Shown here piece by piece: positions 1,149 through 22,250 of a stretch of DNA of 26,051 nucleotides. A program made the translations under genes and the position numbers. This DNA comes from a virus (lineage: Duplodnaviria > Heunggongvirae > Uroviricota > Caudoviricetes): positions 1 to 26,051 of IMG/VR virus record IMGVR_UViG_3300015186_000011; one strand, given 5' to 3'. The notes under the pieces were generated by a model that was given only the letters and a program-made list of their open reading frames with translations, was not told the origin of the DNA and searched no databases. Position 1 is the stretch's first letter, and each line of letters starts with the position of its first letter.

Positions 1149-1200
1149 GTTAAATCTCCAGATAGTCGCAGCACCCGTTGCGCCGCATATCCGGTTATTC

Positions 1201-1268
1201 TATTACCTGAAAAACCACATATGGATAGACAACCCATAAATACGAACAGATATTACCTTTCAGGTGAT
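1201..1268 (-). promoter_or_regulatory. Conserved bipartite upstream element (copy A) ahead of the tailspike gene: TATTACC-N6-AACCACATATG, then TATTACCTTTCAGGT 50 bp away
   Basis: Plus-strand tattacc at 1201-1207 and 1251-1257, accacatatg at 1214-1223. The same arrangement recurs at 21198-21277 upstream of the portal operon. ACCTTTCAGGT is an ACCT-N3-AGGT inverted repeat. Confidence 0.5.
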
Positions 1269-1304
1269 TCGCAAAACGTGCTGGATAGCAAACAAATTAT
1301 TTGA

Positions 1305-1324
1305 TACTGTATAAACATACAGTT
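1305..1324. promoter_or_regulatory. LexA (SOS) box TACTGTATAAACATACAGTT
   Basis: Perfect CTGT-N8-ACAG with an AT-rich spacer (CTGT 1307-1310, ACAG 1319-1322), matching the E. coli LexA consensus TACTGTATATATATACAGTA. It lies about 20 bp upstream of the RBS of the 1344 gene and overlaps a TATAAA -10-like hexamer at 1310-1315. Confidence 0.65.
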
Positions 1325-1343
1325 ATTGCATGGAGAAGATAAG

Positions 1344-1601
1344 ATGCAGCAGTATCACTATCCACTGGAAGACGGATTTACCGAAAGGATTCACACGCCG
1401 GGAGGCGTCAGATCACTAGTGGAGGGATCGCACTTGATGAAATTACTCCGGGATCTCGATAAGGATGGATTTAATGTCGATGGCCCACTTGCCGAACTGA
1501 CTGCACTGATTAACTACGTCACCAGCTCACAGATGTCTATGCAGGATCTGCAAACACATCTCGACTATTGTGCCGAACAATTACGAAAGCAAACCAGATA
1601 A
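1344..1601 (+). CDS. Small (85 aa) standalone protein homologous to the C-terminal domain of the two antirepressors in this window; candidate SOS-inducible antirepressor
   Basis: ATG at 1344 with GGAG 8 nt upstream (the ORF track begins at a TTG at 1326). The product ...YPLEDGFTERIHTPGGVRSLVEGSHLMKLLRDLDKDGFNVDGPLAELTALINYV...DLQTHLDYC... aligns with the C-termini of the 1915..2607 and 3858..4802 products (YxPLKPGYRSLIHSPSGVLGLTENSLLMNLLN.LQEDGHDVSGAAAELTTMF...DIQTHAEY). Confidence 0.6.
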   Translation: MQQYHYPLEDGFTERIHTPGGVRSLVEGSHLMKLLRDLDKDGFNVDGPLAELTALINYVTSSQMSMQDLQTHLDYCAEQLRKQTR

Positions 1602-1741
1602 GGTTTGCAATTACCAAGCGGAGTGCTTATATTTACCTTTGCGGTAAATTTACATCGCACTCCTCTTGTGCCATAGTAATCGAGCACTGGCAAAATCCAG
1701 TGCCGGGATTGGTCTCCCGGATTACTACAGAGGCACATATG

Positions 1742-1760
1742 CCGCATAAGCGGTTTTTTT
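1742..1760 (+). terminator. Weak putative intrinsic terminator (short CCGC/GCGG stem followed by T7 run)
   Basis: ccgcataagcggttttttt. The stem is only 4 bp, so this is low confidence. Confidence 0.3.
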
Positions 1761-1914
1761 ATGTGTAAAGCGCACCTATTCTATGGTGGGCTGTGTGGGG
1801 GCACCGAAAGGTGCGCCGGGTTCCTTTGTAGCCGGTAAGACCAACTCTGCACAGTTCACCACCATCTGATTGGTCTCAGCGGTGGTGATTAACCTAACTA
1901 CAAAGGTGATCGCC

Positions 1915-2607
1915 ATGAATACCAAACCTTCCATCTTTTCCTTTGAGTCATCCTGCCAGATCCGTATGTTCATGATTGACGGAGAACCTTGGTTTGTCAC
2001 CAAAGATGTGTGCAATGCTTTGAATATTGATGTTACACAAGCGAGAAAACTTGATAAAAAAGGCTGGAACAAAAAGGGGCTGTATTCAATACAGACCCCT
2101 GGTGGAATACAAGAACTATCCATCGTTTCAGAATCAGGTCTCTACATCCTTATTCTGCGTTGCAAAGAGGCAATGACTGAGGGAACGAGAGCATTCAGAT
2201 TTCTTGAATGGGTTACAGGTGAGGTTCTTCCTCAGATCCGCCGCACCGGAAGTTACATTAAAAACTCGCTCCCGCAGGAAGAACGCATAAAGATGGTTGC
2301 CGACCAGGTAGCCAACGCCACGGCGTCAGCAGTGATGCAGGCGATGAAGATAGAGAACAAAACCTACAGTGCCCCACTGAAGCCCGGCTACCGCAGCCTG
2401 ATTCATTCGCCGTCTGGTGTTCTCGGCCTGACGGAGAACTCACTGCTGATGAATTTGCTGAACAAGTTACAGGAAGACGGGCACGATGTATCGGGCGCGG
2501 CAGCGGAGCTGACCACCATGTTCTGCTACATCGTCGGTGTGAGCAAATGCCTGCGTGATATCCAGACGCACGCGGAGTACATCAATGACAAGGCAGGGTT
2601 CTTCTGA
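1915..2607 (+). CDS. Phage antirepressor with BRO-N N-terminal domain and the shared antirepressor C-terminal domain
   Basis: ATG at 1915 preceded by AAGGTGA. N-terminus MNTKPSIFSFES..QIRMFMIDGEPWFVTKDVCNAL is a typical BRO-N signature. The C-terminal ~80 aa are near-identical to the C-terminus of the 3858..4802 product. Confidence 0.75.
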   Translation: MNTKPSIFSFESSCQIRMFMIDGEPWFVTKDVCNALNIDVTQARKLDKKGWNKKGLYSIQTPGGIQELSIVSESGLYILILRCKEAMTEGTRAFRFLEWVTGEVLPQIRRTGSYIKNSLPQEERIKMVADQVANATASAVMQAMKIENKTYSAPLKPGYRSLIHSPSGVLGLTENSLLMNLLNKLQEDGHDVSGAAAELTTMFCYIVGVSKCLRDIQTHAEYINDKAGFF

Positions 2608-2631
2608 CGGGCGGCGGCACATGGATGTGCC
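2373..2631. repeat. Left arm of a ~260-bp inverted repeat (partner 3834..4092), ~95% identical at DNA level
   Basis: Reverse complement of 3834-4092 matches 2373-2631 with only a few mismatches. The match spans the antirepressor C-terminal domain coding sequence and ~24 bp beyond the stop codons (cgggcggcggcaca[t/g]ggatgtgc). Confidence 0.7.
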
Positions 2632-2728
2632 TACAATTATCAATAATTGTTTACACTCGTTGCAGTTAAAAGCATTATACTCATGTTTAAAATTACCCGA
2701 TTGGTAAAGTCGATTGGTTGAGGTTCAT

Positions 2729-3055
2729 ATGAGCAGAAGATATGTCAAGGAGCTGGCTATAGAGTCTGGCACCCCTTTGGGTATCGTTCCTGGCTCCAAC
2801 TATGCCAAGGCTTTAAACCGAGACTCTGTCGTCAAAGTTATATCAAGAGACATGAATATGGTCGGAGACGATCTCAGACGGTCAGAAAATCGTGTTTATG
2901 CTGAATATATAGTAAAGAACGGAAAAAAAATTGCAGCGCCTGCTGGCGGAAAATGGGCAATAGTGACAGGGAAAAACTCAAATGCAAGAGGAAAACCAGA
3001 AGCTAAAGGAATGTCCTTCGACAAATATGCAAAAATCTATTGGGCAACCAAGTGA
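2729..3055 (+). CDS. Hypothetical protein (108 aa), first gene of a plus-strand cassette
   Basis: ATG at 2729 with GAGGT 5 nt upstream. Product MSRRYVKELAIESGTPLGIVPGSNYAKALNRD... has no family I can place. A CAATTATCAATAATTG inverted repeat lies upstream at 2634-2649. Confidence 0.45.
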   Translation: MSRRYVKELAIESGTPLGIVPGSNYAKALNRDSVVKVISRDMNMVGDDLRRSENRVYAEYIVKNGKKIAAPAGGKWAIVTGKNSNARGKPEAKGMSFDKYAKIYWATK

Positions 3056-3530
3056 TAACGAAGAAACTGAGTTCGAGGAAGTTGAGGAAGGGCTAAGTAA
3101 CGAGATCATTCAACACCCAGATGCCTTCACAAGAGTTCTTGATCGCCCTGAAATTCAGGAGATAGTTGTCGCTCACCATGCGTTTCAGGGTCCGCTTCCT
3201 CCCCCCTATCTGCTTCGCGGGTATCAGGATATTTTACCTGATGCCCCCGAACGCATCTTCCAGCTGACGGAGAAGGAGTTTGCTCACCGCCAGAAAATGG
3301 AGGAAAAGGCACTTGACGGGGCTATTAATAGAGATAAACGTGGGCAGTGGTTTGGCCTGAGTGCAACTATTTTTACAGTAGCTTGTGCAACATTATTAGG
3401 TTTAACAGGTCATGAAGTTCTAGCTGGCACAGTGATCGGTACAGTTGTTGCAGTGGCTGGTATTTTTGTTCTCAGACAAAAACCGAGCTTAAAGAAGAAC
3501 GCTGAAGATAAAACACCAGAAGAAGAGTAA
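2982..3530 (+). CDS. DUF2335-like predicted membrane protein (acidic N-terminal region, two C-terminal TM helices)
   Basis: Motif GPLPPPYLLRGYQDILPDAPERIFQLTEKEFAHRQKMEEKALDGAINRDKRGQWFG followed by hydrophobic segments matches my recollection of DUF2335. Start is ambiguous (ATG at 2982 or 3027); both overlap the upstream ORF in another frame. Confidence 0.55.
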   Translation: MQEENQKLKECPSTNMQKSIGQPSDNEETEFEEVEEGLSNEIIQHPDAFTRVLDRPEIQEIVVAHHAFQGPLPPPYLLRGYQDILPDAPERIFQLTEKEFAHRQKMEEKALDGAINRDKRGQWFGLSATIFTVACATLLGLTGHEVLAGTVIGTVVAVAGIFVLRQKPSLKKNAEDKTPEEE

Positions 3531-3553
3531 GCCCGCGACGCGGGCTTTTTTGT
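3531..3553 (+). terminator. Rho-independent terminator
   Basis: GCCCG-cgacg-CGGGC stem-loop followed by TTTTTTGT, immediately after the stop of the DUF2335-like gene. Confidence 0.7.
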
Positions 3554-3623
3554 GGGCGAAACAAAAGTCAGTGCTACACTCATTGACGCCACATTGAGGT
3601 GGTTTATAGATGGAAATTTCACA

Positions 3624-3785
3624 ATGAAAAAAGCATTTGCTGCACTGTTCGTTTTGTTGTCTCTGGTAGCTTCAACTCAGGCCTTTGCCGGTCGTTGTCA
3701 GCACGACAGCGACACTGCTGCTGACGGCTCCCGCTGCGGTGGGCGTTCTGCGGATTCCCGCCCGGGCGGCGGTGGCATTCGTTAA
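3624..3785 (+). CDS. Small putative secreted peptide (53 aa) with N-terminal signal peptide
   Basis: MKKAFAALFVLLSLVASTQAFA has signal-peptide character with an AxA cleavage motif. The mature part is Gly/Arg/Asp-rich with 2 Cys. RBS is weak and the gene is short, so confidence is low. Confidence 0.4.
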   Translation: MKKAFAALFVLLSLVASTQAFAGRCQHDSDTAADGSRCGGRSADSRPGGGGIR

Positions 3786-3807
3786 AAACAAGGCCGCGAA
3801 AGCGGCC

Positions 3808-3821
3808 TGTGACATGTCACG
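3808..3821. promoter_or_regulatory. Copy 1 of the 14-bp palindromic motif CGTGACATGTCACA (read on the minus strand), between convergent genes
   Basis: Perfect 12-bp palindrome GTGACATGTCAC at 3809-3820, just after a GGCCGC-GAAA-GCGGCC hairpin (3792-3807). The identical 14-mer recurs at 22254-22267 and 24519-24532. Confidence 0.6.
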
Positions 3822-3833
3822 ATAGTTTCGTTT

Positions 3834-4092
3834 TGCACATCCCTGTGCCGCCGCCCGTCAGAAGAACCCTGCCTTGTCGTTGATGTACTCCGCGTGCGTC
3901 TGGATATCACGCAGGCATTTGCTCACACCAACGATGTAACAGAACATGGTGGTCAGCTCCGCCGCCGCGCCCGATACATCGTGCCCGTCTTCCTGTAACT
4001 GGTTCAGCAGATTCATCAGCAGTGAGTTCTCCGTCAGACCGAGAACACCAGACGGAGAATGAATCAGACTGCGGTAGCCGGGCTTCAATGGA
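3834..4092. repeat. Right arm of the ~260-bp inverted repeat (partner 2373..2631)
   Basis: See left arm; covers the 3' end of the minus-strand antirepressor gene plus ~24 bp downstream. Confidence 0.7.
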
Positions 4093-4802
4093 TAACCATA
4101 ACATTTTGTCTGTGTTTTAATTGCCTCACGAAGCGCATCTAACATCTTGACTGCCACTTCATCATTCTCTGATGCAGATCCAGCAGGGAGATACTCCCCT
4201 TCAAGCGGAACCCGAGCAACAAGAGACAACGCTTCGGCAAATTGATCTTCACCAATTTCTTTGTACGAACAGCCAAAATGAGATTTCAGTGACGACCACA
4301 TGGTGATCATCGCCTTAGCCTGTTTTTCTTTTGGCAGAGACTGACCGCGACTCATGACGAGTTGTTTAATGGCTTCCTGCTGTTCAGTTGTTATTTTACC
4401 CGGCAACGCCTTTTTAGCTTTGCGTGGGTTAACCACATGGCCTTTAGTCCAGTACTCGTAGAGCACATCGTCACACTCTTCCTGATACTGGATTACCTTG
4501 TCGCGGATTTCAGGGCGGACTTTGTTAGGGCTGATGGTTTGCAGCCAACCTGCAAGTTTGCGTAAAGCAAGACAGATAACCAGACGACGCTGAGTATCAC
4601 CGGGGAGCTGAATGGTCATTTCGACCATGCAGCTCTTAAAGCGTTGTTGCAACTTGCGGAACTGCGTTTTCCAGTCCAGCCCCATACCTTCAACGACTGG
4701 TTTCATTGGGGTGTATGGTTCGCCGTTATGATTGACAACATAAAGCTCTGCGCCGTGGAATGGCACGTTGATAGTAGATACCGCTGTTGCTATACTCGTC
4801 AT
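3858..4802 (-). CDS. ant: P22 Ant-like antirepressor (AntA / P22_AR_N-type N-terminal domain plus shared C-terminal domain)
   Basis: 314-aa ORF with AGGAA RBS. N-terminus ...GAELYVVNHNGEPYTPMKPVVEGMGLDWKTQFRKL is antirepressor N-domain-like. It sits immediately downstream of an Arc-like gene, as in P22 immI. Confidence 0.75.
   Translation of the reverse strand: MTSIATAVSTINVPFHGAELYVVNHNGEPYTPMKPVVEGMGLDWKTQFRKLQQRFKSCMVEMTIQLPGDTQRRLVICLALRKLAGWLQTISPNKVRPEIRDKVIQYQEECDDVLYEYWTKGHVVNPRKAKKALPGKITTEQQEAIKQLVMSRGQSLPKEKQAKAMITMWSSLKSHFGCSYKEIGEDQFAEALSLVARVPLEGEYLPAGSASENDEVAVKMLDALREAIKTQTKCYGYPLKPGYRSLIHSPSGVLGLTENSLLMNLLNQLQEDGHDVSGAAAELTTMFCYIVGVSKCLRDIQTHAEYINDKAGFF
4768..4796 (+). promoter_or_regulatory. 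Sigma70-like promoter (TTGATA-17 bp-TATACT) firing antisense across the ant translation start
   Basis: -35 TTGATA 4768-4773, 17-bp spacer, -10 TATACT 4791-4796. Predicted start near 4803, directly opposite the ant start codon (4800-4802) and RBS. Confidence 0.5.
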
Positions 4803-4877
4803 GTCGTTAATTCCTATACGTAGTTTTACGATACTGAAGCCCTGACGGTCTGGCCACCGTGGGGCTTCGCTGTTTTA
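4803..4877 (+). ncRNA. sar: Candidate sar-like antisense small RNA (~75 nt) complementary to the ant ribosome-binding region
   Basis: A promoter at 4768-4796 and an intrinsic terminator on the same strand (nested hairpin GAAGCCC..ACGGT-ctggcc-ACCGT..GGGCTTC at 4836-4868, then GCTGTTTTAT) bracket a ~75-nt transcript in the arc-ant intercistronic region. This mirrors the sar antisense RNA of P22 immI. Confidence 0.45.
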
Positions 4878-5042
4878 TGCCACGCTATTCTTCTCACCAG
4901 TGAGTCCATACACTTTCCTCAGCTGATAGATAATCTCTGTATTGAACTTTCGGCATTCTTTTTCGCCATTTCTTTCAATAGCTAACTTCACATCGTCCGG
5001 AAAACGAACTCGTCGTTGACACATCTCTTTTGCTTTTTGCAT
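4875..5042 (-). CDS. arc: Arc-like ribbon-helix-helix repressor (55 aa)
   Basis: ATG at 5040-5042 with a strong TAAGGAGA Shine-Dalgarno (the track ORF starts at an upstream GTG). Product MQKAKEMCQRRVRFPDDVKLAIERNGEKECRKFNTEIIYQLRKVYG resembles P22 Arc (..FNLRWPREVLDLVRKVAEENGRSVNSEIYQRV..). It lies upstream of ant and divergent from an Mnt-like gene. Confidence 0.65.
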   Translation of the reverse strand: MQKAKEMCQRRVRFPDDVKLAIERNGEKECRKFNTEIIYQLRKVYGLTGEKNSVA

Positions 5043-5056
5043 TTCATATCTCCTTA

Positions 5057-5071
5057 GCCCCACCGTGGGGC
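5057..5071. promoter_or_regulatory. Palindromic operator candidate GCCCCACCGTGGGGC (Mnt-operator-like core CCACCGTGG) at the predicted +1 of the arc-ant promoter
   Basis: Near-perfect palindrome between the predicted Pant -10 and the arc RBS. The core matches, as I recall it, the P22 mnt operator core CCACGGTGG (reverse complement). The 12-mer CCACCGTGGGGC recurs at 4854-4865. Confidence 0.5.
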
Positions 5072-5077
5072 AAAATA

Positions 5078-5125
5078 ATTGTCACACCGTGCGTCATTGA
5101 TGTCAAGCACACGGTGAGGCATACT
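5078..5125. promoter_or_regulatory. Divergent overlapping promoters: Pant-like (minus strand) and Pmnt-like (plus strand)
   Basis: Minus strand: -35 TTGACA (plus coordinates 5101-5106), 17 bp, extended -10 TGtGACAAT (5078-5083). Plus strand: -35 TTGATG 5097-5102, 17 bp, -10 CATACT 5120-5125. Inverted CACCGTG / CACGGTG half-sites at 5085-5091 and 5110-5116. Confidence 0.5.
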
Positions 5126-5162
5126 TCAATCATTGCAAGTAACTCAATATTTGGTGAAGAAC

Positions 5163-5594
5163 ATGAGCAGAGAAGATCCACAACTAAGGATCAGACTTCC
5201 CGTTGAAGTAAAAGAAAAAATAGAAATTTCTGCAAAAGCCAATAAGCGATCAATGAACGCTGAAATAGTACAACGTCTTGACACCAGCTTTCTGAAAGAT
5301 ATTCATGAAGATGACGTAATTTCTGCTTATGAAGCAAAAATTATTGCAAACAATGCACGACATGAAATATCAAATATTATTTTCAAAAGAACCTTTAATG
5401 AAATTAATAAGAAAATAACACTTGGACATACAAGTTTTTATATAAACCTTAATGACCTTGAACTGGAATCACTTGCAGATAATGATTACCAGATCATCTT
5501 TGAAAAAACATTTAATAAGCTCAATGAACTAGGTTACATCATCTGTGAAAACTCATGGGATGCAGATGGTTTTGGAATTGAAATACCTGAATAG
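5163..5594 (+). CDS. mnt: Mnt-like ribbon-helix-helix repressor with an AT-rich C-terminal extension (143 aa)
   Basis: ATG at 5163 (track ORF starts at a TTG at 5133). N-terminus MSREDPQLRIRLPVEVKEKIEISAKANKRSMNAEIVQRL closely resembles P22 Mnt (MARDDPHFNFRMPMEVREKLKFRAEANGRSMNSELLQIV). The C-terminal ~95 aa have no match I recognise and the DNA turns markedly AT-rich. Confidence 0.7.
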   Translation: MSREDPQLRIRLPVEVKEKIEISAKANKRSMNAEIVQRLDTSFLKDIHEDDVISAYEAKIIANNARHEISNIIFKRTFNEINKKITLGHTSFYINLNDLELESLADNDYQIIFEKTFNKLNELGYIICENSWDADGFGIEIPE

Positions 5595-5607
5595 GAAGAA
5601 CAAAAGG

Positions 5608-5630
5608 CGTGTACATATTACACGTCTTTA
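5608..5630 (+). terminator. Hairpin CGTGTA-catat-TACACG followed by a T-rich tract; putative terminator or operator
   Basis: 6-bp inverted repeat with TCTTTAAT downstream, between the Mnt-like gene and the membrane-protein gene. Confidence 0.3.
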
Positions 5631-5684
5631 ATACAATTGAAAAACGCCACATTACTGATGTATGTTACAACAAGGAGCGATATT

Positions 5685-6248
5685 TTGAAAACCATATCTA
5701 TATTAAAGGTTGCATTAGGCGTCGCTATTATTTTGACTCTCTCAATATTGTTTTATTTTTACCACAAAAAAACTGCTATTGCTCTTGATGGTCACGCGGC
5801 AAACTCATTTTTCTCAGAGTACATAGTGCCGCTATCAGGAAGCGGTATAACAAATAAATATACTGACTATGACATCAAATATGGAATTGATGATGGGGAG
5901 ACTATTGTATTACATGTAATCATTAAAAACCTAATGACAGTAAATAAAAATACAGACTTCAACGATAAAAATACAATACATCACAACAACAGCAAAACAT
6001 TAATTTCTTATAGTAGCAACATCTATACGGATAAATACCTAAAATACATATCAGAAGATACAATAAAAGAAACCCGCGAAAAGTTAAAAAACATATATTG
6101 TGCATCCGGCAGTTTTCACAAATTATCGCCGCAAGAGCGTTTATTCTACGAAGCAAGAAAACAACGTAAGTCAATAATATTACATTATTATGCTGATTCA
6201 GGGGAGTCACTCATATTTAATATTGGGGTTTCCCCTGAATCATGCTAA
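5685..6248 (+). CDS. AT-rich moron: membrane-anchored protein of unknown function (~188 aa), candidate superinfection-exclusion or abortive-infection factor
   Basis: TTG start at 5685 with AGGAG 8 nt upstream (alternatives: ATG 5658, track TTG 5637). N-terminal hydrophobic helix ISILKVALGVAIILTLSILFYFY, then an Asn/Lys/Tyr-rich domain. GC content is far below the flanking phage genes. Confidence 0.5.
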   Translation: MKTISILKVALGVAIILTLSILFYFYHKKTAIALDGHAANSFFSEYIVPLSGSGITNKYTDYDIKYGIDDGETIVLHVIIKNLMTVNKNTDFNDKNTIHHNNSKTLISYSSNIYTDKYLKYISEDTIKETREKLKNIYCASGSFHKLSPQERLFYEARKQRKSIILHYYADSGESLIFNIGVSPESC

Positions 6249-6259
6249 AGGTGTTTAAC

Positions 6260-9200
6260 TCACCGCATCACCGGATCCACCTGGTTTATTAGTGGCGCAA
6301 TCCAGAACAGGTTATTGCCGGGTATCAGGGTTCGGACATTATGCACAATACGATCACCGGCATCACCATTCAACACTCCTGCGGTCACATCAATGATGCT
6401 ATCCGCAAGACCAAATGACGGTCCGAATAGAGATCCTACGAATCCACGACTGGCATACCTAGACTGTGTGCCAGTGCCAAATAAAGCCCCCAGCCCAACA
6501 GCACCACCAGTAGCCTTTTCAGCCATGTTGTTATATTCCATCAATGGCCCAAGAATACCGGATCTATCTATACCCTCAAGCACCAGCTTCTCTGGTGACC
6601 AGTCAACATTTTTCCCTTTCGATGCTTCTTTAAGCGCATAGACCAGTGAGCCAAGAGCAATCTGAAATGCAGTGCCATAATAAAATTGCGCAGTTCCTTC
6701 CTGTAACCCACCAAGTAGCGCACGGTTGTATGAAGCCGTTGTGAATGATTTAAACTGAAATATCGTTCGCCCCATTGGAGTACTCGCCCATAAAGGTGTG
6801 TCACCAATACCGGGGGTGATGATAGTGTTATTAACGTCTTTCAGAACCGCTGACTGGAATACTCCGGCAACGTACTGATCGTCCCATTTATCAAAGTTAC
6901 CAATGTGCCATCCATCAATTACCTCACCATGTTTCTCGAACTCACTGCGAATACGCGCAGCCATATTGTCGTTGATACCGAGTTTTGCCATGCGACGTGC
7001 AGAAAACGCACCAGACAAAATACCGTCTGACGTGAGCATTCCGTTCATGGATTTGTTTATGTCATTAAATCGATCCATGAGTGTCAGCTTGCCGAAGGCA
7101 TCAGTAATTCGCTCCATTCCTGCTTCGACTGCTGTTGTCCTGGAAGAACTGTCAACAAGATCACCAATTGCACGAGAACGTGAATGTAGTACAGTTTCCA
7201 ATCCAATCCCCATCTTCAACATCTCTTCTTTGCTGGCCTTAAATGCCGGTGATTGGGATATCTGAGAAGCATAGCCTTTCATGGTGTTACGGAAACCATT
7301 AACCATAACCCCTCTGGCCAGATCTGGAATAGCTGATACTGTCATTCCACCGAGTTTGGTCGTGAAGTTCACATCCCGCAGAAAAGCGCCAGCACGAACA
7401 AAAAACGAAGACGGGTCATCAGGCATACCATATGTACCAACAAGACGATCGCGTAATGCTGTTATGTCTCTGAGATCATTTGCTCTTGATTTTGAAAGTC
7501 TGGACTGTTCTTTCCGTAATTCCTTTTCGTACTTTCGCATTAATGAATCGAGTTTACCCTGAGGAACAACTTCACCATTGCTCTCATAACGTGCTTTCAG
7601 ATTTGCCACACTTTCGTCATATTTCGCCTTTATTTTTTCAGGCACTTCCCGTAACAGACTGTCATATTCGTCCTCAATTAATTGCAGACGCTCAGTCATA
7701 GTTCGTTTGCCAAATGTTCTCGTCAACTCAATTTCTGCTGCCGCTTCACGGATATGACGTTGCAGCACGTAATTCACATCACTTTCAAGATAATCCCTGA
7801 TAAGACTATCAGGAACATTTAATGTTCTTTCTTTCGTACTACCTGCGGCTTTTACAGAAAATACGCTGACAAAATCCTGTGGAACCTTAGCACCAGTAAT
7901 TTTATTAATTACGATATCCGCTGCAATTTCAGCATCCTCAGGATCCAGTGTTTTATTGCCTCTCGACCACCAGTCAACCAAAATACGTCGAAATTTATCG
8001 CGTTCACTGATTATTTTTCCAACTTTATATATACGTGGAAAATAGCTTGCCTGGCCTAATGCTTTCAGTTCTTCATCTGGCGGTAATAAACCAAGCTTTT
8101 GCATTTCAACCTTCACCCGATTTAATACAGTTCGCATCGCCTGCGCCGTTTCCTGAACAACAGGATTAGCATGCACATCACCGCTTCGCATAGCATTCCC
8201 AACCTGCTGACGAAATGAATCAAAACTCATGTCGCCACCATCAGCTTTATACTTTGCGTATGCCTGTTTATTTCCGACAACAACAGCAGCTTCTTCACGC
8301 TGCCATCCACGTGTACGGGTTTCTACAGCTACCGGTGTTTCAATCCCCCTTTCATTTCCTTTAAGGGTGAAATTATTTTCGGCTAACTCCAGCGTTGTTT
8401 TTCGCACTGTCTTGGACGGAGACTCCATTAACCTTGTCAAAGGAGTAAGATAGCTCCCTGCTTTCCATGCAGCCTTTCCAACCCACCCACCGGAAACAGG
8501 GGTTAAATCATCCAGAGTCGCTGTATCAATTTTCATAGCACCAACACTACCACCATCAGAAAGCGAAGCGGCAGCCCTGTCAGTCGCTGATGTAATGCTC
8601 ATATTATCAAGAGCATCAGCAACCTCACGCGTGGCTGCAGCCCGGACGGATGGCGAAAGCGCAACACCAGCACTGGCAAACACGCCGCTCATCATCGCAC
8701 CCGCTGCAACGTGAGCGGCACTTTCACCCCATGAGCGTGTTATTTGCTGATTATTCAGCACAACCTCGCTTAATGCTGTACCGGCAGCACCAATCGCAAT
8801 CTGTGAGCCAATACGCGCCAGTGCCCCTCCTTGAGCACCGGGGATAAACATTGACGCAACAGTAACCGGATCCATTCCCGCAGCAATACTGGCAAGAGTT
8901 CCAACTACGCCAGCATCAGACAATAAACGTCTGTCTTCATTTTCATCATCTATCTGCTGCTTAATCCACGCCGTTTCCTCTGGCGATCGGGAATCTGCAA
9001 ATTTCGCCCCCCAGTATTCATAACCGTGCAACTCATTTTTATCAGCATATGGGTTATAACCTTCGACCGGTTCAAACTGTCTGGCTGGTCGGAAAAAACC
9101 AGCCAGAATATTGTTCTGTCGCATTGCAGCCCCCCATACGGAAGGCTCCGGTGGCAATGGCTCAGGATTAGCCCCTTCCGGAAGGGCAACATCAAACCCA

Positions 9201-9274
9201 GTTTGTTCCGGCAAAACATTACCTGACGGGATCAGTCCGTTATTAAGATCTTCAGCTTGTGCATAAACTGGCAT
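6260..9274 (-). CDS. Large internal virion / ejection protein (1004 aa), T7 gp16-position analogue
   Basis: Last and largest ORF of the coupled structural operon; its start overlaps the upstream stop (TAATG at 9274). Ala/Gly-rich with coiled-coil segments. Assignment is by size and synteny only. Confidence 0.55.
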   Translation of the reverse strand: MPVYAQAEDLNNGLIPSGNVLPEQTGFDVALPEGANPEPLPPEPSVWGAAMRQNNILAGFFRPARQFEPVEGYNPYADKNELHGYEYWGAKFADSRSPEETAWIKQQIDDENEDRRLLSDAGVVGTLASIAAGMDPVTVASMFIPGAQGGALARIGSQIAIGAAGTALSEVVLNNQQITRSWGESAAHVAAGAMMSGVFASAGVALSPSVRAAATREVADALDNMSITSATDRAAASLSDGGSVGAMKIDTATLDDLTPVSGGWVGKAAWKAGSYLTPLTRLMESPSKTVRKTTLELAENNFTLKGNERGIETPVAVETRTRGWQREEAAVVVGNKQAYAKYKADGGDMSFDSFRQQVGNAMRSGDVHANPVVQETAQAMRTVLNRVKVEMQKLGLLPPDEELKALGQASYFPRIYKVGKIISERDKFRRILVDWWSRGNKTLDPEDAEIAADIVINKITGAKVPQDFVSVFSVKAAGSTKERTLNVPDSLIRDYLESDVNYVLQRHIREAAAEIELTRTFGKRTMTERLQLIEDEYDSLLREVPEKIKAKYDESVANLKARYESNGEVVPQGKLDSLMRKYEKELRKEQSRLSKSRANDLRDITALRDRLVGTYGMPDDPSSFFVRAGAFLRDVNFTTKLGGMTVSAIPDLARGVMVNGFRNTMKGYASQISQSPAFKASKEEMLKMGIGLETVLHSRSRAIGDLVDSSSRTTAVEAGMERITDAFGKLTLMDRFNDINKSMNGMLTSDGILSGAFSARRMAKLGINDNMAARIRSEFEKHGEVIDGWHIGNFDKWDDQYVAGVFQSAVLKDVNNTIITPGIGDTPLWASTPMGRTIFQFKSFTTASYNRALLGGLQEGTAQFYYGTAFQIALGSLVYALKEASKGKNVDWSPEKLVLEGIDRSGILGPLMEYNNMAEKATGGAVGLGALFGTGTQSRYASRGFVGSLFGPSFGLADSIIDVTAGVLNGDAGDRIVHNVRTLIPGNNLFWIAPLINQVDPVMR

Positions 9275-11991
9275 TATTTAGATCCCCACGAAAAGTAATC
9301 TTTAAATTTGTCCATACGTTCGTTATGCAGGCGCTGATACTGCTCATCCAGAGCGCGATGCTTGTCTTTGAAGTTTCGTATAGCCTGTCCACGCATAATT
9401 TCTTCCTGCTCGTACTGCTCCCATTCCTGCTGCATTTTCTTATAAGGTTCCCAATCTTCTAGTGATGGTTCCCAACGCATAGGACGCCCATGTTTGTTAT
9501 AAAACGGCTGGACCCGATCGATGCCATTTTCATCCTTAGTTCTTACCATAATGGCGTAATCACCATTACGAGGTGTTAACACGTCAGGGGTTATGAATAA
9601 TTCTCCATTAATACGACTCTCAGGGGTTTTTGTCTCAACTACAGGAGCATTACCTGACGTGATCCCAAGCAACGTCGGACTGGTTGTTATAATCTCTTTG
9701 CGCTCACCGTACATCAGCCGTTCTTTTTCAGCTTTCCACTGCGCCGCCTGCCAGCCTGACGGCCCATATTGATAAAGCGCCTCCGGTGCATATTTCATAA
9801 ACTGCGCTTCTCCGTTAACCTCGCTGATACTCCAGGTGCGGGCTATCTGCTGGTTGGTCATTTGCTTCGCTACGTCAGCGTTACCACCAGCAACGCGGTA
9901 GTTAATGTCATACAGCGTCTGATAGTCATTACGGAATCTAGCTGCTTCCGGCGTCTGGTCATCCGCAGACGGATCCCAACGGAACCACTGCGCCATATTG
10001 CTGACAGCAGAATTCATCGCCTTGCTGCGATCATTTTTGTACTCTTTTGAACTCTGCGTTGATGCCAATTGAGCTTTAAGAGCATCGGTCTGGTTGTACG
10101 TAAGGTTCTGCGCCTGCTCGATAGCCGCATCAGCAGACATGCCAGAATCAGTTAGTTGCTTAACAGTCAGATAAAAACCCTGCATATCCTTCGGCATATT
10201 TCCAATAGATGCATTGTCTGTTTCATATAACCGACTAAACAGTTCCGCCGCATTTTTAACCACTTCCTGATTGCTGGATCGGGATACTGCTGAAAGCTGC
10301 GTGATGACCTGCGAAGGCATTATGCCAGTCTGAGCCACAAGCCGAACAACCCCATCATGAGTGGAGGCATCATTAATACGAAAGTTCTGCGCCATTTCTG
10401 TGTAATCAGCAGCTTTCTGCATTGACTTGTTGCTTGGGTCTAATTTTTCACCTATTGTCAGCGCCTCATTGAATCTGCGTGAATCCCGTTGCGCCTGAAT
10501 TGCTTCATTTGATCTCTGAAGCAATGCAGACAATTTTCCGTAAGCATCGAGTTTTAACGCATAGTGAGGATCGTTAACCTCAGGCTTCACTTTCTGCATT
10601 TCTTCTTGCTGCTGAGAAGGAGGCAAATACTGAATTGCCTGGAATATTCTCGCGTTATCAATCGCTATATCCAGTTGATTGATTATTTTATCTGCGTTTT
10701 TTCCATACCCCCTGATGATGGTCTCCTGAGCCGGTATATAATCTGGAACCTCACCGTTATATAGCTGTGCCATGGTGTTATTAATAGCTGGCTCAAGCTG
10801 TTCTAATATTAACTTCCTTTGCTTTTCTATCTGACTATTAGCAAGGTTATCTATTTGATAAATAGTCAGCGGATCCATTCCAGTTTTATTTTTTCTATAT
10901 CGGGAAAGCCACCCTTGTGTTTCTGATGGAAGATTTCGGATAAATTCTTCTTCTGATATTTCACCTTTACGTGGATCACCGACTTTGGCGATCAGTTTAT
11001 CCACGTTACCCATCCCCCAGTTATATGCTGCTCCGGTCAATATTTCGGAACCGTACTTACCATACAGTTGATTTACATAGTCACTGGCGAGCATTTCATG
11101 CTGTTGTTCGTCCGTAGGGTTGTATTCAACGCCACGCTTGGCCGCCAGTTCTTTTCCTGTGCCCGGCATTAACTGGTATTTCCCCTGTGCTCTCTCTCCA
11201 GAAGATGTTATCGGTCCCTCAAGAAGACTACCATCAGGATTAAAATGTCGATCACCTGATTCAACAAGGCGTATGGCACGCATGTCCATGCCTCCAGAAT
11301 CATTTTTCTGAAACAGACCATTTAGCCATCCTTCTGGATTGGCAGCGGCATAATTCTTCGCCCGCATTTCTGTGGCACTGCGATCATCACTTTCTATTTC
11401 TTCCAGAATGCGTTCTTGTGACCATCCCCTGGCAGCTCCATATCTGGCAATGGCTACCATTCTGGAATTTCGGGCTAAGGTGGCAGTTTGCGGGTCATTC
11501 CAGGCATCCGCTTCATTTTGTATCCATAATTTTCTCGTTGCCTGATATTGCTCATCTTCATAGGCATTTGTCTGCCCTATCTCATGTCTGAGAACTCCAG
11601 TACTGAACTGAATTTTCTGTGTTCTGGCTTGTTGCAAAAACATATTTCTTGCTGCTTCATCAGTCAATGAAGCAGCTATTTCTTCCACATCCTGATCAAA
11701 TCCAGATATGTACTCTTGCCCCTTACCAATCGCATTTTTGCCTTGTTGTGCATAAAAACCGGTTTGAGGGTTATAAAGACGTTCATTGCTGCGCTGATTA
11801 AGCTGAAGGATGGCATCCTGAGACAATGCAACATTCGCTTTCTGCCTGGCTTCACCATATGCCACCGCATACTGATCTGCGACATTCGCCAGCACCTGAC
11901 CTGCTTGAGGAACATCGAAGGTCTGAAAACCACCGGTTTGCACACCACGACTTTGCACCTGACGTCCGGATATTGTTGGTACGACTGGCAT
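9274..11991 (-). CDS. Internal virion protein with a soluble lytic transglycosylase (SLT) domain (906 aa)
   Basis: True start is probably the ATG at 11991 (MPVVPTISG..), with GGAGG 6 nt upstream and a TAATG overlap with the preceding gene; the track ORF extends to 12066. SLT signature LVESGDRHFNP...SSGERAQGKYQLMPGTGKELA...TGAAYNWGMGNV lies at roughly 11000-11310. Confidence 0.65.
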   Translation of the reverse strand: MPVVPTISGRQVQSRGVQTGGFQTFDVPQAGQVLANVADQYAVAYGEARQKANVALSQDAILQLNQRSNERLYNPQTGFYAQQGKNAIGKGQEYISGFDQDVEEIAASLTDEAARNMFLQQARTQKIQFSTGVLRHEIGQTNAYEDEQYQATRKLWIQNEADAWNDPQTATLARNSRMVAIARYGAARGWSQERILEEIESDDRSATEMRAKNYAAANPEGWLNGLFQKNDSGGMDMRAIRLVESGDRHFNPDGSLLEGPITSSGERAQGKYQLMPGTGKELAAKRGVEYNPTDEQQHEMLASDYVNQLYGKYGSEILTGAAYNWGMGNVDKLIAKVGDPRKGEISEEEFIRNLPSETQGWLSRYRKNKTGMDPLTIYQIDNLANSQIEKQRKLILEQLEPAINNTMAQLYNGEVPDYIPAQETIIRGYGKNADKIINQLDIAIDNARIFQAIQYLPPSQQQEEMQKVKPEVNDPHYALKLDAYGKLSALLQRSNEAIQAQRDSRRFNEALTIGEKLDPSNKSMQKAADYTEMAQNFRINDASTHDGVVRLVAQTGIMPSQVITQLSAVSRSSNQEVVKNAAELFSRLYETDNASIGNMPKDMQGFYLTVKQLTDSGMSADAAIEQAQNLTYNQTDALKAQLASTQSSKEYKNDRSKAMNSAVSNMAQWFRWDPSADDQTPEAARFRNDYQTLYDINYRVAGGNADVAKQMTNQQIARTWSISEVNGEAQFMKYAPEALYQYGPSGWQAAQWKAEKERLMYGERKEIITTSPTLLGITSGNAPVVETKTPESRINGELFITPDVLTPRNGDYAIMVRTKDENGIDRVQPFYNKHGRPMRWEPSLEDWEPYKKMQQEWEQYEQEEIMRGQAIRNFKDKHRALDEQYQRLHNERMDKFKDYFSWGSK

Positions 11992-21598: not shown

Positions 21599-21675
21599 GT
21601 GGCATTAGCTCAGTTGGACAGAGCAACCGCCTTCTAAGCGGTTGGTCGCAGGTTCGAATCCTGCATGCCACGCCA
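21599..21675 (+). tRNA. tRNA-Arg, anticodon UCU (reads AGA), with encoded CCA
   Basis: Cloverleaf read by hand: acceptor GTGGCAT/ATGCCAC, D-arm GCTC..GAGC, anticodon stem ACCGC/GCGGT with loop CTTCTAA (anticodon TCT), T-arm GCAGG-TTCGAAT-CCTGC, discriminator G and CCA. Acceptor stem differs from host argU as I recall it, consistent with a phage-borne copy. Confidence 0.8.
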
Positions 21676-21761: not shown

Positions 21762-21838
21762 CAGCAGGACGCCATTGCGATGACTTCATGCTGTAAACCC
21801 GTACAGCCACGGAAGGCAGAACTCATTGCTTCCAGTTC

Positions 21839-21878: not shown

Positions 21879-22250
21879 ATGAGTGACAAAGACATTGAAT
21901 CTGAAATTCAGGCTAAAGGTTTAGCCGCGCCGCGCGTTACGCCAGACCATATCGAGAGCATTATTGCTCAGGAGGCATATTTCACAGCAGAAGATGGTGT
22001 CTTTGGCGTAGCCATAAAAGCGAAACATACTGGCGGAGAGGTAAACTACCAGCCGCACGAATCACTTTCTCTGCTGACTTTCTGCGTTCTGGTGCTGCGC
22101 AACGGCTTCACCGTCACCGGAGAGAGCGCCTGTGCAAGCCCGGAAAACTTTGATGCGGAAATTGGTCGGAAGATTGCCCGGCAGAATGCTGTAAACAAAA
22201 TCTGGATGCTTGAAGGTTACTTGCTGAAGCAGAAGTTAAGCGAGCAATAA
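21879..22250 (+). CDS. Phage Gp49 / Sf6 gene-66 family protein (123 aa)
   Basis: MSDKDIESEIQAKGL...LSLLTFCVLVLRNGFTVTGESACASPENFDAEIGRKIARQNAVNKIW matches my recollection of this conserved small phage protein family. Confidence 0.6.
   Translation: MSDKDIESEIQAKGLAAPRVTPDHIESIIAQEAYFTAEDGVFGVAIKAKHTGGEVNYQPHESLSLLTFCVLVLRNGFTVTGESACASPENFDAEIGRKIARQNAVNKIWMLEGYLLKQKLSEQ

Follow-up and report, generated by a model that had tools for sequence, protein, structure and literature searches.

Why should one temperate phage carry the same antirepressor domain three times within 3.5 kb, each time on a different protein scaffold? The question is raised by IMG/VR record IMGVR_UViG_3300015186_000011, of which positions 1 to 26,051 were analysed here (this whole stretch of 26,051 nt is called the window below). 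The window belongs to a temperate E. coli phage of the epsilon15/phiV10-like group (Uetakevirus), is collinear with phiV10 and makes up the tailspike-proximal accessory region. Its closest relative is Escherichia phage TL-2011b, which originates from an enterohaemorrhagic E. coli (EHEC) outbreak strain, is ~98% identical over the 76% of query 1150-6300 that it covers, and has the same three antirepressor genes. These genes, here called ant-S, ant-B and ant-P, sit between the tailspike gene and the gene for a 1004-aa virion protein. We consider it probable that the three antirepressors share one effector domain, by which the phage repressor Rep would be removed from its operator, and that this domain stands behind three different regulatory locks.

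A preliminary description of the sequence had proposed three copies of a ~80-aa C-terminal domain, one standalone, one fused to BRO-N and one fused to a P22 Ant-type N-terminal domain, and on this point alignment, tblastn and PDB matches agree. The domain is called A-type below where it is ant-S-like and B/C-type where it is that of the ant-B and ant-P fusions. Over their last 80 aa, ant-B and ant-P share 96% identity, and both C-domains align to full-length ant-S with 39-40% identity and 31 invariant columns; tblastn within the window gave 42-44% over 72-74 aa (E 1e-14 to 5e-18) between the standalone and the fused copies. Searching 177,635 PDB sequences with phmmer matched ant-S, residues 2-84, to residues 3-85 of chain 5D50_E, an 'Anti-repressor protein' (E 4.1e-47), and the C-domain of ant-P, residues 233-309, to the same chain (E 7.5e-14). 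PDB entry 5D50 is the repressor Rep of Salmonella phage SPC32H in complex with its antirepressor Ant. According to the summary in a citing paper (PMC9638917), SPC32H Ant forms a tetramer, which binds two Rep dimers and breaks the Rep tetramer. Judged by these matches, the shared domain has the predicted fold of SPC32H Ant. A Pfam search found no model for it, with one DUF724 match below threshold, and its PHROGs entry (phrog_450) is labelled 'unknown function'. The domain family comprises 57 clusters among 1.84 billion representative proteins and has a conserved core visible family-wide; most clusters are standalone proteins of 80-100 aa, and in a few the domain is joined to the C-terminal side of AntA, Bro-N, Phage_pRha or ORF6N.

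The association of this domain with Rep is close. Rep is encoded outside the window; in TL-2011b, gp10 is the homologue of SPC32H Rep (E 6.6e-42 against 5D50_A). The shared domain was found in 34 of 50,697 phage records, all 34 of which carry a Rep homologue. Thirty-five of the 36 phage records with a full-length Rep match have the domain family, and Rep was present in 24/24 matched IMG/VR contigs. Further support comes from phage ZX5, in which over-expression of ORF4 cut the prophage titre from 1e9 to 1e6 and lowered lysogeny ~1000-fold (PMC9782041). We found ORF4 to be a BRO-N fusion, its C-domain to share 97.5% identity with that of the window, and ZX5 Rep to be 98.5% identical to TL-2011b Rep; the ZX5 paper makes no mention of the adjacent SPC32H-type small Ant (PMC9782041). 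The 5D50 match, the co-occurrence with Rep and ZX5 ORF4 lend good, if indirect, support to the earlier proposal that the shared domain is a repressor-targeting module, and we infer that the fused domains of ant-B and ant-P bind Rep.

Domain exchange is seen in ant-P. Its residues 12-123 match P22_AR_N (PF10547, E 2.9e-45), and the Pfam search found no match to P22_AR_C (PF10548) in ant-P, whereas Ant of CUS-3, a P22-like phage, and Ant of Stx2 phage 1717 both carry this domain (E 5e-29 and 1e-29). Residues 1-203 of ant-P are collinear and largely identical with both proteins, near-identical from about residue 90, with a sharp break after residue 203. By its sequence ant-P is a P22-type Ant in which an SPC32H-type domain has taken the place of P22_AR_C. 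That the same N-terminal 203 residues are found with either C-terminus argues that the C-domain sets target specificity. Remote homology between the shared domain and P22_AR_C was considered and rejected, with an hhalign probability of 0.5% (21-sequence family alignment against the CUS-3 and 1717 C-termini). Exchange also occurs at ant-B. In E. coli prophages collinear with the window, two blocks are kept, one consisting of ant-S, isrK, C4 and leader and the other of the C-domain and its hairpin, and the segment between them, from ~1890/1917 to 2334, encodes BRO-N, AntA or ORF6N; elsewhere the shared domain is fused to pRha. The modular shuffling first suggested for the BRO-N and P22 Ant-type scaffolds is borne out and is wider, taking in AntA, ORF6N and pRha as well as the replacement of P22_AR_C in ant-P.

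One alternative is that the shared domain merely tetramerises and that ant-B and ant-P owe their antirepressor (or other) activity to BRO-N and P22_AR_N. SPC32H Ant is described as tetrameric (PMC9638917), and BRO-N, AntA, ORF6N, pRha and P22_AR_N are all conventionally annotated 'antirepressor'. An AlphaFold2 model of ant-B (monomer, 31-sequence alignment) had a mean predicted local distance difference test score (pLDDT) of 60, with 41-60 in the C-domain and mostly 72-82 in the BRO-N part, and an ill-defined monomer model of the C-domain is expected of an obligate oligomer. We nevertheless regard this alternative as improbable. The 86-aa domain alone is the SPC32H antirepressor that was crystallised with Rep (PDB 5D50), and a generic module should not be confined to one repressor type, as this one is in 34/34 records and in its 57 clusters/1.84 billion proteins. 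Furthermore, exactly this part was exchanged in ant-P relative to the P22-like/lambdoid Ant proteins, which serve a different class of repressor, and the N-domains swap freely while the C-domain and Rep remain constant.

The main alternative is a division of labour, in which ant-S hits the phage's own Rep and the B/C-type domain binds the repressor of other prophages or a host factor. Such a division would fit the identity of only 39-44% between A-type and B/C-type domains, the optional nature of the B/C-type copies (Salmonella epsilon15/SPC32H-type phages have ant-S only), and the precedent of trans-acting antirepressors with cross-talk between prophages (PMC3121763). However, B/C-type domains were found only in phage records with an SPC32H-type Rep and only alongside an A-type copy, and their divergence across genera (100/76/54%) roughly parallels that of Rep (100/78/45%). 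The 31 core positions invariant across both domain types also argue against it, as does ZX5 ORF4, a B-type fusion that shifted ZX5's own lysis-lysogeny balance (PMC9782041). On this evidence we think a division of labour unlikely and prefer the reading in which all three proteins would act on Rep. Lock-step co-divergence of the Ant types with Rep was tried as a separate proposition and was inconsistent with the data.

The first of the three locks is the SOS response. Ant-S belongs to phrog_450, has no Pfam family and is 88% identical to the SPC32H ant locus (tblastn). A LexA box lies 20 nt upstream of its start codon and occupies the same position, with a variable spacer, in 6 related loci, and ant-S is predicted to be under SOS control through this putative operator. 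SOS induction would then lead to synthesis of ant-S, inactivation of Rep and induction of the prophage, as in the SPC32H mechanism. DNA encoding ant-S was found in 529 of 5426 complete E. coli genomes, and, among the E. coli rows listed, each one with an annotated feature calls its homologue a 'hypothetical protein'. Most phage records likewise leave the small Ant as 'hypothetical protein' despite 88% identity to a crystallised antirepressor, which amounts to an annotation gap.

The second lock is an RNA leader directly upstream of ant-B. The protein itself matches Bro-N (PF02498, E 2e-13, 51.2 bits with the cutoff at 25.6) and, over residues 162-243, phrog_450 (E 8e-37); it has 967 homologues, those listed being full-length BRO-N proteins from across Enterobacteriaceae. 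Its leader contains an isrK RNA (RF01394, 74.7 bits, gathering score 50), overlapped by a c4-a1b1 match under the gathering score (RF03163, 37.9 bits), and a C4 RNA that matches its model in full length, 1-87 (RF01695, 78.6 bits, gathering score 45). The order is promoter, isrK (a1/b1), terminator, C4 (a'/b'), a2/b2 and ant-B, and the promoter-like sites end 7 nt ahead of the 5' ends of isrK and of sar. The loop of C4 hairpin 2 is exactly complementary (9 nt) to b2, which overlaps the ant-B Shine-Dalgarno sequence, and a single-stranded C4 stretch is exactly complementary (7 nt) to both a2 and an isrK loop. We suggest that C4 RNA from a lysogen would pair with a2 and with b2 over the ribosome-binding site, blocking ant-B translation in cis and in trans, and that short IsrK RNA with its decoy a1/b1 sites could titrate C4. 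In Gifsy-1, IsrK activates in trans the translation of the downstream antirepressor AnrP (PMC4825925), and a stress input of the IsrK type is possible. The sole candidate for a leader open reading frame (ORF) has 28 codons, lies inside C4 (1783-1868) and ends 47 nt before the ant-B ATG.

Comparison of relatives shows how variable this second lock is. For a pairing set of 90 isrK-C4-leader modules from 81 loci (35 distinct sequences), pairing was counted per sequence by script because gaps misaligned the a2 region in the MAFFT alignment. Three forms of a' and four of b' occur in seven combinations. Targets in cis are fully paired in 89/90 modules at a1, 90/90 at a2, 90/90 at b1 and 85/90 at b2, the five remaining b2 sites pairing at 7/8 nt. 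The a'/b' sequences co-vary with their targets, compensatory changes preserving the pairing, and none of 558 between-class combinations of C4 and leader pairs at both sites. In all eight loci with two or more modules the C4 classes differ. Rep, on the other hand, differs at no more than 3 of 194 residues across the 24 matched contigs, and one identical Rep sequence accompanies five C4 classes. At least seven orthogonal a'/b' classes on a nearly invariant Rep point to a second, RNA-coded immunity specificity set by the C4 lock. Heteroimmunity between P1 and P7 has been ascribed to small differences in immI (PMC6906374), and the C4 classes described here may determine heteroimmunity in the same manner: a superinfecting phage of a different C4 class could express its antirepressor and break the resident's repression.

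The census also shows how widely the fused copies are kept. We fetched 80 IMG/VR loci with 99-100% identical ant-S. In 71 of them one or more fused copies lie within 5 kb; a convergent P22_AR_N copy like that of the window is present in eight, a convergent second C4-led BRO-N or AntA gene in six, and one locus has three C4-led genes. A B/C-type arm is present at 582 places in 469 of 5426 complete E. coli genomes, which means that ~100 genomes carry two or three fused copies. One IMG/VR locus (L022, IMGVR_UViG_3300045988_096329) has, at 5341-9716, three C4-led BRO-N genes (+, -, +), each of a different C4 class, and four copies of the domain if the small Ant is counted. In phiV10 (L002, 5212-5441) a frameshift within the C-domain divides the BRO-N antirepressor gene, which is annotated in two parts, p23 and p22; this is either a pseudogene or a sequencing error.

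At the DNA level the copies in ant-B and ant-P are arranged as an inverted repeat of 292 nt with 91% complementary arms, 1204 nt apart. The earlier estimate of ~95% identity between these two copies, with the third diverged, agrees with our count for the domain core (2374-2607): 10 differences in 234 nt (95.7%), nine synonymous and one non-synonymous, over 78 codons. The 9:1 ratio shows that both copies have stayed functional since their divergence, and purifying selection on both fused domains is indicated by this pattern. Similarity extends 23 nt beyond both stop codons, across a conserved hairpin. An invertible switch was considered and rejected, a query with the inverted cassette having matched only 1/5426 genomes at >=80% coverage, a degraded prophage. 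Convergent C4-led pairs are a regular architecture in the IMG/VR census, and we take the inverted repeat to result from one module being shared by two convergent genes. In the degraded prophage of E. coli MS 196-1 (L010, 3966-8600), the C-domain of the BRO-N gene is followed by sequence that normally lies 3' of ant-P, and in place of ant-P, arc and mnt there is an ORF6N gene in reversed orientation that has an isrK/C4 leader of its own. The L010 junctions fall inside the C-domain repeat, so that the shared domain serves as a site of recombination. Ordinary homologous recombination is the probable role of the arms, without sign of programmed inversion.

With these data it can also be asked whether the extra copies are recombination debris without selected function in a hypervariable moron region, the inverted repeat marking a recent insertion. 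The region is indeed a hot spot of recombination, marked by variable cassettes and by insertions, the phiV10 copy is frameshifted, and one degraded prophage has junctions inside the arms. Against this stand the 9 to 1 excess of synonymous differences between the arms, the intact fusions and leaders in 469/5426 complete E. coli genomes and 71/80 IMG/VR loci, the compensatory changes that maintain pairing of C4 with its targets, and the different classes of co-resident C4 modules in 8/8 cases. We regard debris as a very remote explanation.

The third lock resembles immI of P22. The arrangement of that region is found around ant-P, with an arc-like gene that lies upstream of ant-P within one operon, an mnt-like gene in divergent orientation and a sar RNA over the ribosome-binding site, although the evidence for arc and sar is marginal. 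The sar match (RF00262) scores 44.8 bits against a threshold of 43 and recurs in three related loci (L001, L004 and L006). The arc-like protein matches phrog_228, 'Arc-like repressor' (E 1.8e-5), and is annotated under that name in TL-2011b, with no Pfam match above threshold; the mnt-like protein, of 143 aa, matches Arc (PF03869, E 1.2e-14) and phrog_1388. A palindrome, GCCCCAC-C-GTGGGGC, at the start site of a strong Pant-like promoter is Mnt-operator-like; at 5054-5074, it resembles the core of the P22 mnt operator (CCACGGTGG). The promoter and palindrome region is conserved in five loci; allelic diversity at the P22-type promoter/operator was looked for and rejected, the region being nearly invariant in six loci. 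Ant-P may thus represent an imported P22/lambdoid module that was re-targeted to the local repressor by the Uetakevirus C-domain and kept its own Mnt-like, Arc-like and sar controls. GC content falls to 0.34 across 5001-6248, which covers the mnt-like gene and the next ORF of 203 aa (phrog_8033, no assigned function), and because of this fall a foreign origin is suggested for that part of the immI-like module.

The preliminary description had suggested that several induction inputs (SOS, Arc/Mnt-controlled and other) may converge on one target, which is borne out in part. Three controls are indeed present, namely the LexA box, the Mnt/Arc/sar set and, as the 'other', isrK/C4, but two of them look like secondary-immunity locks. 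Given that C4 and Mnt/Arc are classical immI circuits, and that the C4 classes are orthogonal on an invariant Rep, ant-B and ant-P are better read as immunity/anti-immunity modules than as induction sensors. More tentatively, and with somewhat less than even confidence, we propose that the Uetakeviruses of E. coli have essentially one repressor and one 'warhead' domain, and that their superinfection immunity has been diversified by interchangeable locks (at least seven C4 specificities and a P22-type lock), with the N-domains as target-independent adaptors or sensors.

Several observations weigh against a common effector domain behind three locks. The sar match is barely over threshold and the Arc-like protein is weakly supported by profiles. 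The leader lacks an icd/orf45-type coupled ORF overlapping the ant-B start, so that translational control of ant-B may differ in detail from that in P1 and Gifsy-1. The ant-B C-domain is poorly modelled as an AlphaFold monomer (pLDDT 41-60). The cognate Rep of the window phage is deduced from TL-2011b and IMG/VR relatives, and E. coli Rep and SPC32H Rep share only ~42% identity; the identity of A-type Ant does not track that of Rep, Salmonella phages having 88% for Ant and 42% for Rep. The support from ZX5 consists of over-expression. Finally, ant-S and the fused domains are only ~40% identical, and different partners or interfaces are therefore possible.

Table 1. Positions of the antirepressor genes, their control elements and neighbouring features in the window.
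Feature	Position	Strand	Basis or remarks
LexA (SOS) box TACTGTATAAACATACAGTT	1305-1324	+	exact CTGT-N8-ACAG at 1307-1322
ant-S	1344-1601	+	85 aa, standalone Ant-type domain; ORF listing
Promoter-like site TTTACA-17-CATAGT, extended -10	1649-1677	+	promoter scan; positioned to start at isrK nt 1
isrK-type RNA; a1 1709-1715, b1 1725-1733	1684-1760	+	Rfam RF01394; own terminator 1741-1761
C4-type antisense RNA; b' loop 1823-1831 CCUUUGUAG, a' stretch 1838-1844 AGACCAA	1779-1866	+	Rfam RF01695, minimum free energy fold
ant-B leader; a2 1870-1876 TTGGTCT, b2 1898-1906 CTACAAAGG	1870-1906	+	exact complementarity to C4
ant-B	1915-2607	+	230 aa from ATG (245 aa from TTG at 1870); BRO-N + Ant-type C-domain
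ant-B parts: BRO-N, linker, Ant-type C-domain	1960-2232 (BRO-N); 2365-2604 (C-domain)	+	Pfam, C-domain alignment
Inverted repeat, left arm (linker end, C-domain, 3' hairpin)	2339-2630	+	
Variable cargo cassette between repeat arms	2714-3785	+	
Cassette: phrog_10654 ORF	2714-3055		
Cassette: DUF2335 membrane protein	2982-3530		
Cassette: terminator	3529-3547		
Cassette: 53-aa signal-peptide protein	3624-3785		
Inverted repeat, right arm	3835-4126	-	
ant-P	3858-4802	-	314 aa; P22_AR_N + Ant-type C-domain
ant-P parts: P22_AR_N; shared Ant middle region; Ant-type C-domain	4434-4769; to 4194; 3861-4100	-	
Psar-like promoter, then sar antisense RNA	4768-4796; 4804-4871	+	covers ant-P ribosome-binding site
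arc-like ribbon-helix-helix gene	4875-5042	-	55 aa; upstream of ant-P, same orientation
Pant-like promoter TTGACA-17-GACAAT, then palindrome GCCCCAC-C-GTGGGGC	5106-5078; 5054-5074	-	
Second inverted repeat	5080-5091 / 5110-5121		flanks -35 of Pant-like promoter
mnt-like gene	5163-5594	+	divergent from arc/ant-P; N-terminal Arc/Mnt ribbon-helix-helix domain

The surroundings of the three genes (Table 1) are themselves variable. The content of the cassette between the repeat arms differs among loci that are otherwise collinear. Its phrog_10654 and DUF2335 ORFs overlap by 74 nt in different frames, and both are annotated by RefSeq in related prophages. The 53-aa signal-peptide protein (MKKAFAALFVLLSLVASTQAFA...) is kept beside the 3' end of ant-P in many prophages, and its gene is followed by a bidirectional terminator at 3791-3808. 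An insertion hot spot lies between ant-S and isrK (1601-1627), where TL-2011b and two further loci (L003 and L006) carry extra minus-strand genes, including one for a YafO-family toxin, that the window does not have. Far from the antirepressor genes, a tRNA-Arg(TCT) gene (21599-21675) is located among minus-strand structural genes; ~115 nt downstream of it CTGT-N8-ACAG occurs once more as an exact motif (21791-21806), its spacer being GC-rich, and this is followed by a plus-strand ORF at 21879-22250 (phrog_322).

The components of this system are already known: Ant/Rep of SPC32H (PDB 5D50 and 5D4Z), immI of P22, immI and IsrK of the P1 type, and domain shuffling of the BRO-N type. The window shares with SPC32H an orthologous 85-aa ant-S with its LexA box, situated beside the tailspike gene in an epsilon15-like genome, as well as the Rep homologue found in TL-2011b. 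Whereas SPC32H and epsilon15 have one such gene only, the phage of the window adds the domain as the C-terminus of two larger proteins under other controls. With P22 immI it has in common a P22_AR_N antirepressor, an arc-like gene, a sar RNA that covers the ribosome-binding site of ant, an mnt-like gene in divergent orientation and a Mnt-operator-like palindrome; it differs in that ant-P lacks P22_AR_C, the mnt-like protein has an extra C-terminal part and the phage carrying the module is not of the P22 kind. Iyer, Koonin and Aravind reportedly described in 2002 how domains are shuffled among the BRO-N, KilA-N, AntA, ORF6N and Rha regulators of phages. The same N-terminal families recombine here with different C-terminal domains, with the differences that the DNA is near-identical, that the boundaries between RNA leader and C-domain are sharp, and that the C-terminal partner has been solved together with its target.

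The leader of ant-B follows the order of P1/P7 immI (c4-icd-ant) and of Gifsy-1 isrK-orf45-anrP, with a1/b1 (isrK), C4, a2/b2 and the antirepressor gene in succession and b2 over the ribosome-binding site. As between P1 and P7, specificity lies in short loop sequences (PMC6906374), and, as in Gifsy-1, the isrK terminator permits read-through into the antirepressor gene (PMC4825925). In contrast to these systems, the window has no overlapping ORF of the icd/orf45 type, there are at least seven classes instead of two, sometimes stacked two or three to a genome, and the antirepressor has an SPC32H-type C-terminus. Trans-acting, LexA-controlled antirepressors are also known from the Gifsy and Fels-2 prophages (Lemire et al. 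2011, PMC3121763), where induction likewise proceeds through small SOS-controlled antirepressors instead of repressor cleavage and several can act on one repressor. By its description, however, that family is of the Tum/GfoA type, and there several prophages have one gene each, whereas here one phage has several.

In annotations and the searchable literature we found no recognition of the solved Ant domain as a C-terminal module of multi-domain antirepressors, no P22-type Ant re-targeted by a swap of its C-domain, no single phage described as co-housing three classical antirepressor control systems, and no multiple, orthogonal and stackable C4 classes. On a practical level, the C-terminal domain of many prophage proteins annotated as 'BRO-N', 'AntA', 'ORF6N' or 'Ant' gains a structure-backed function, and the natural domain swap in ant-P makes the long-unclear role of N-terminal 'antirepressor' domains testable. 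If the more tentative reading given above is true, these phages would keep their protein core constant and compete in a heteroimmunity arms race that is RNA-coded and combinatorial. A system of the P1/P7 style with many orthogonal alleles and a constant repressor would be relevant to prophage competition, to prophage induction in pathogenic E. coli and to orthogonal RNA regulators.

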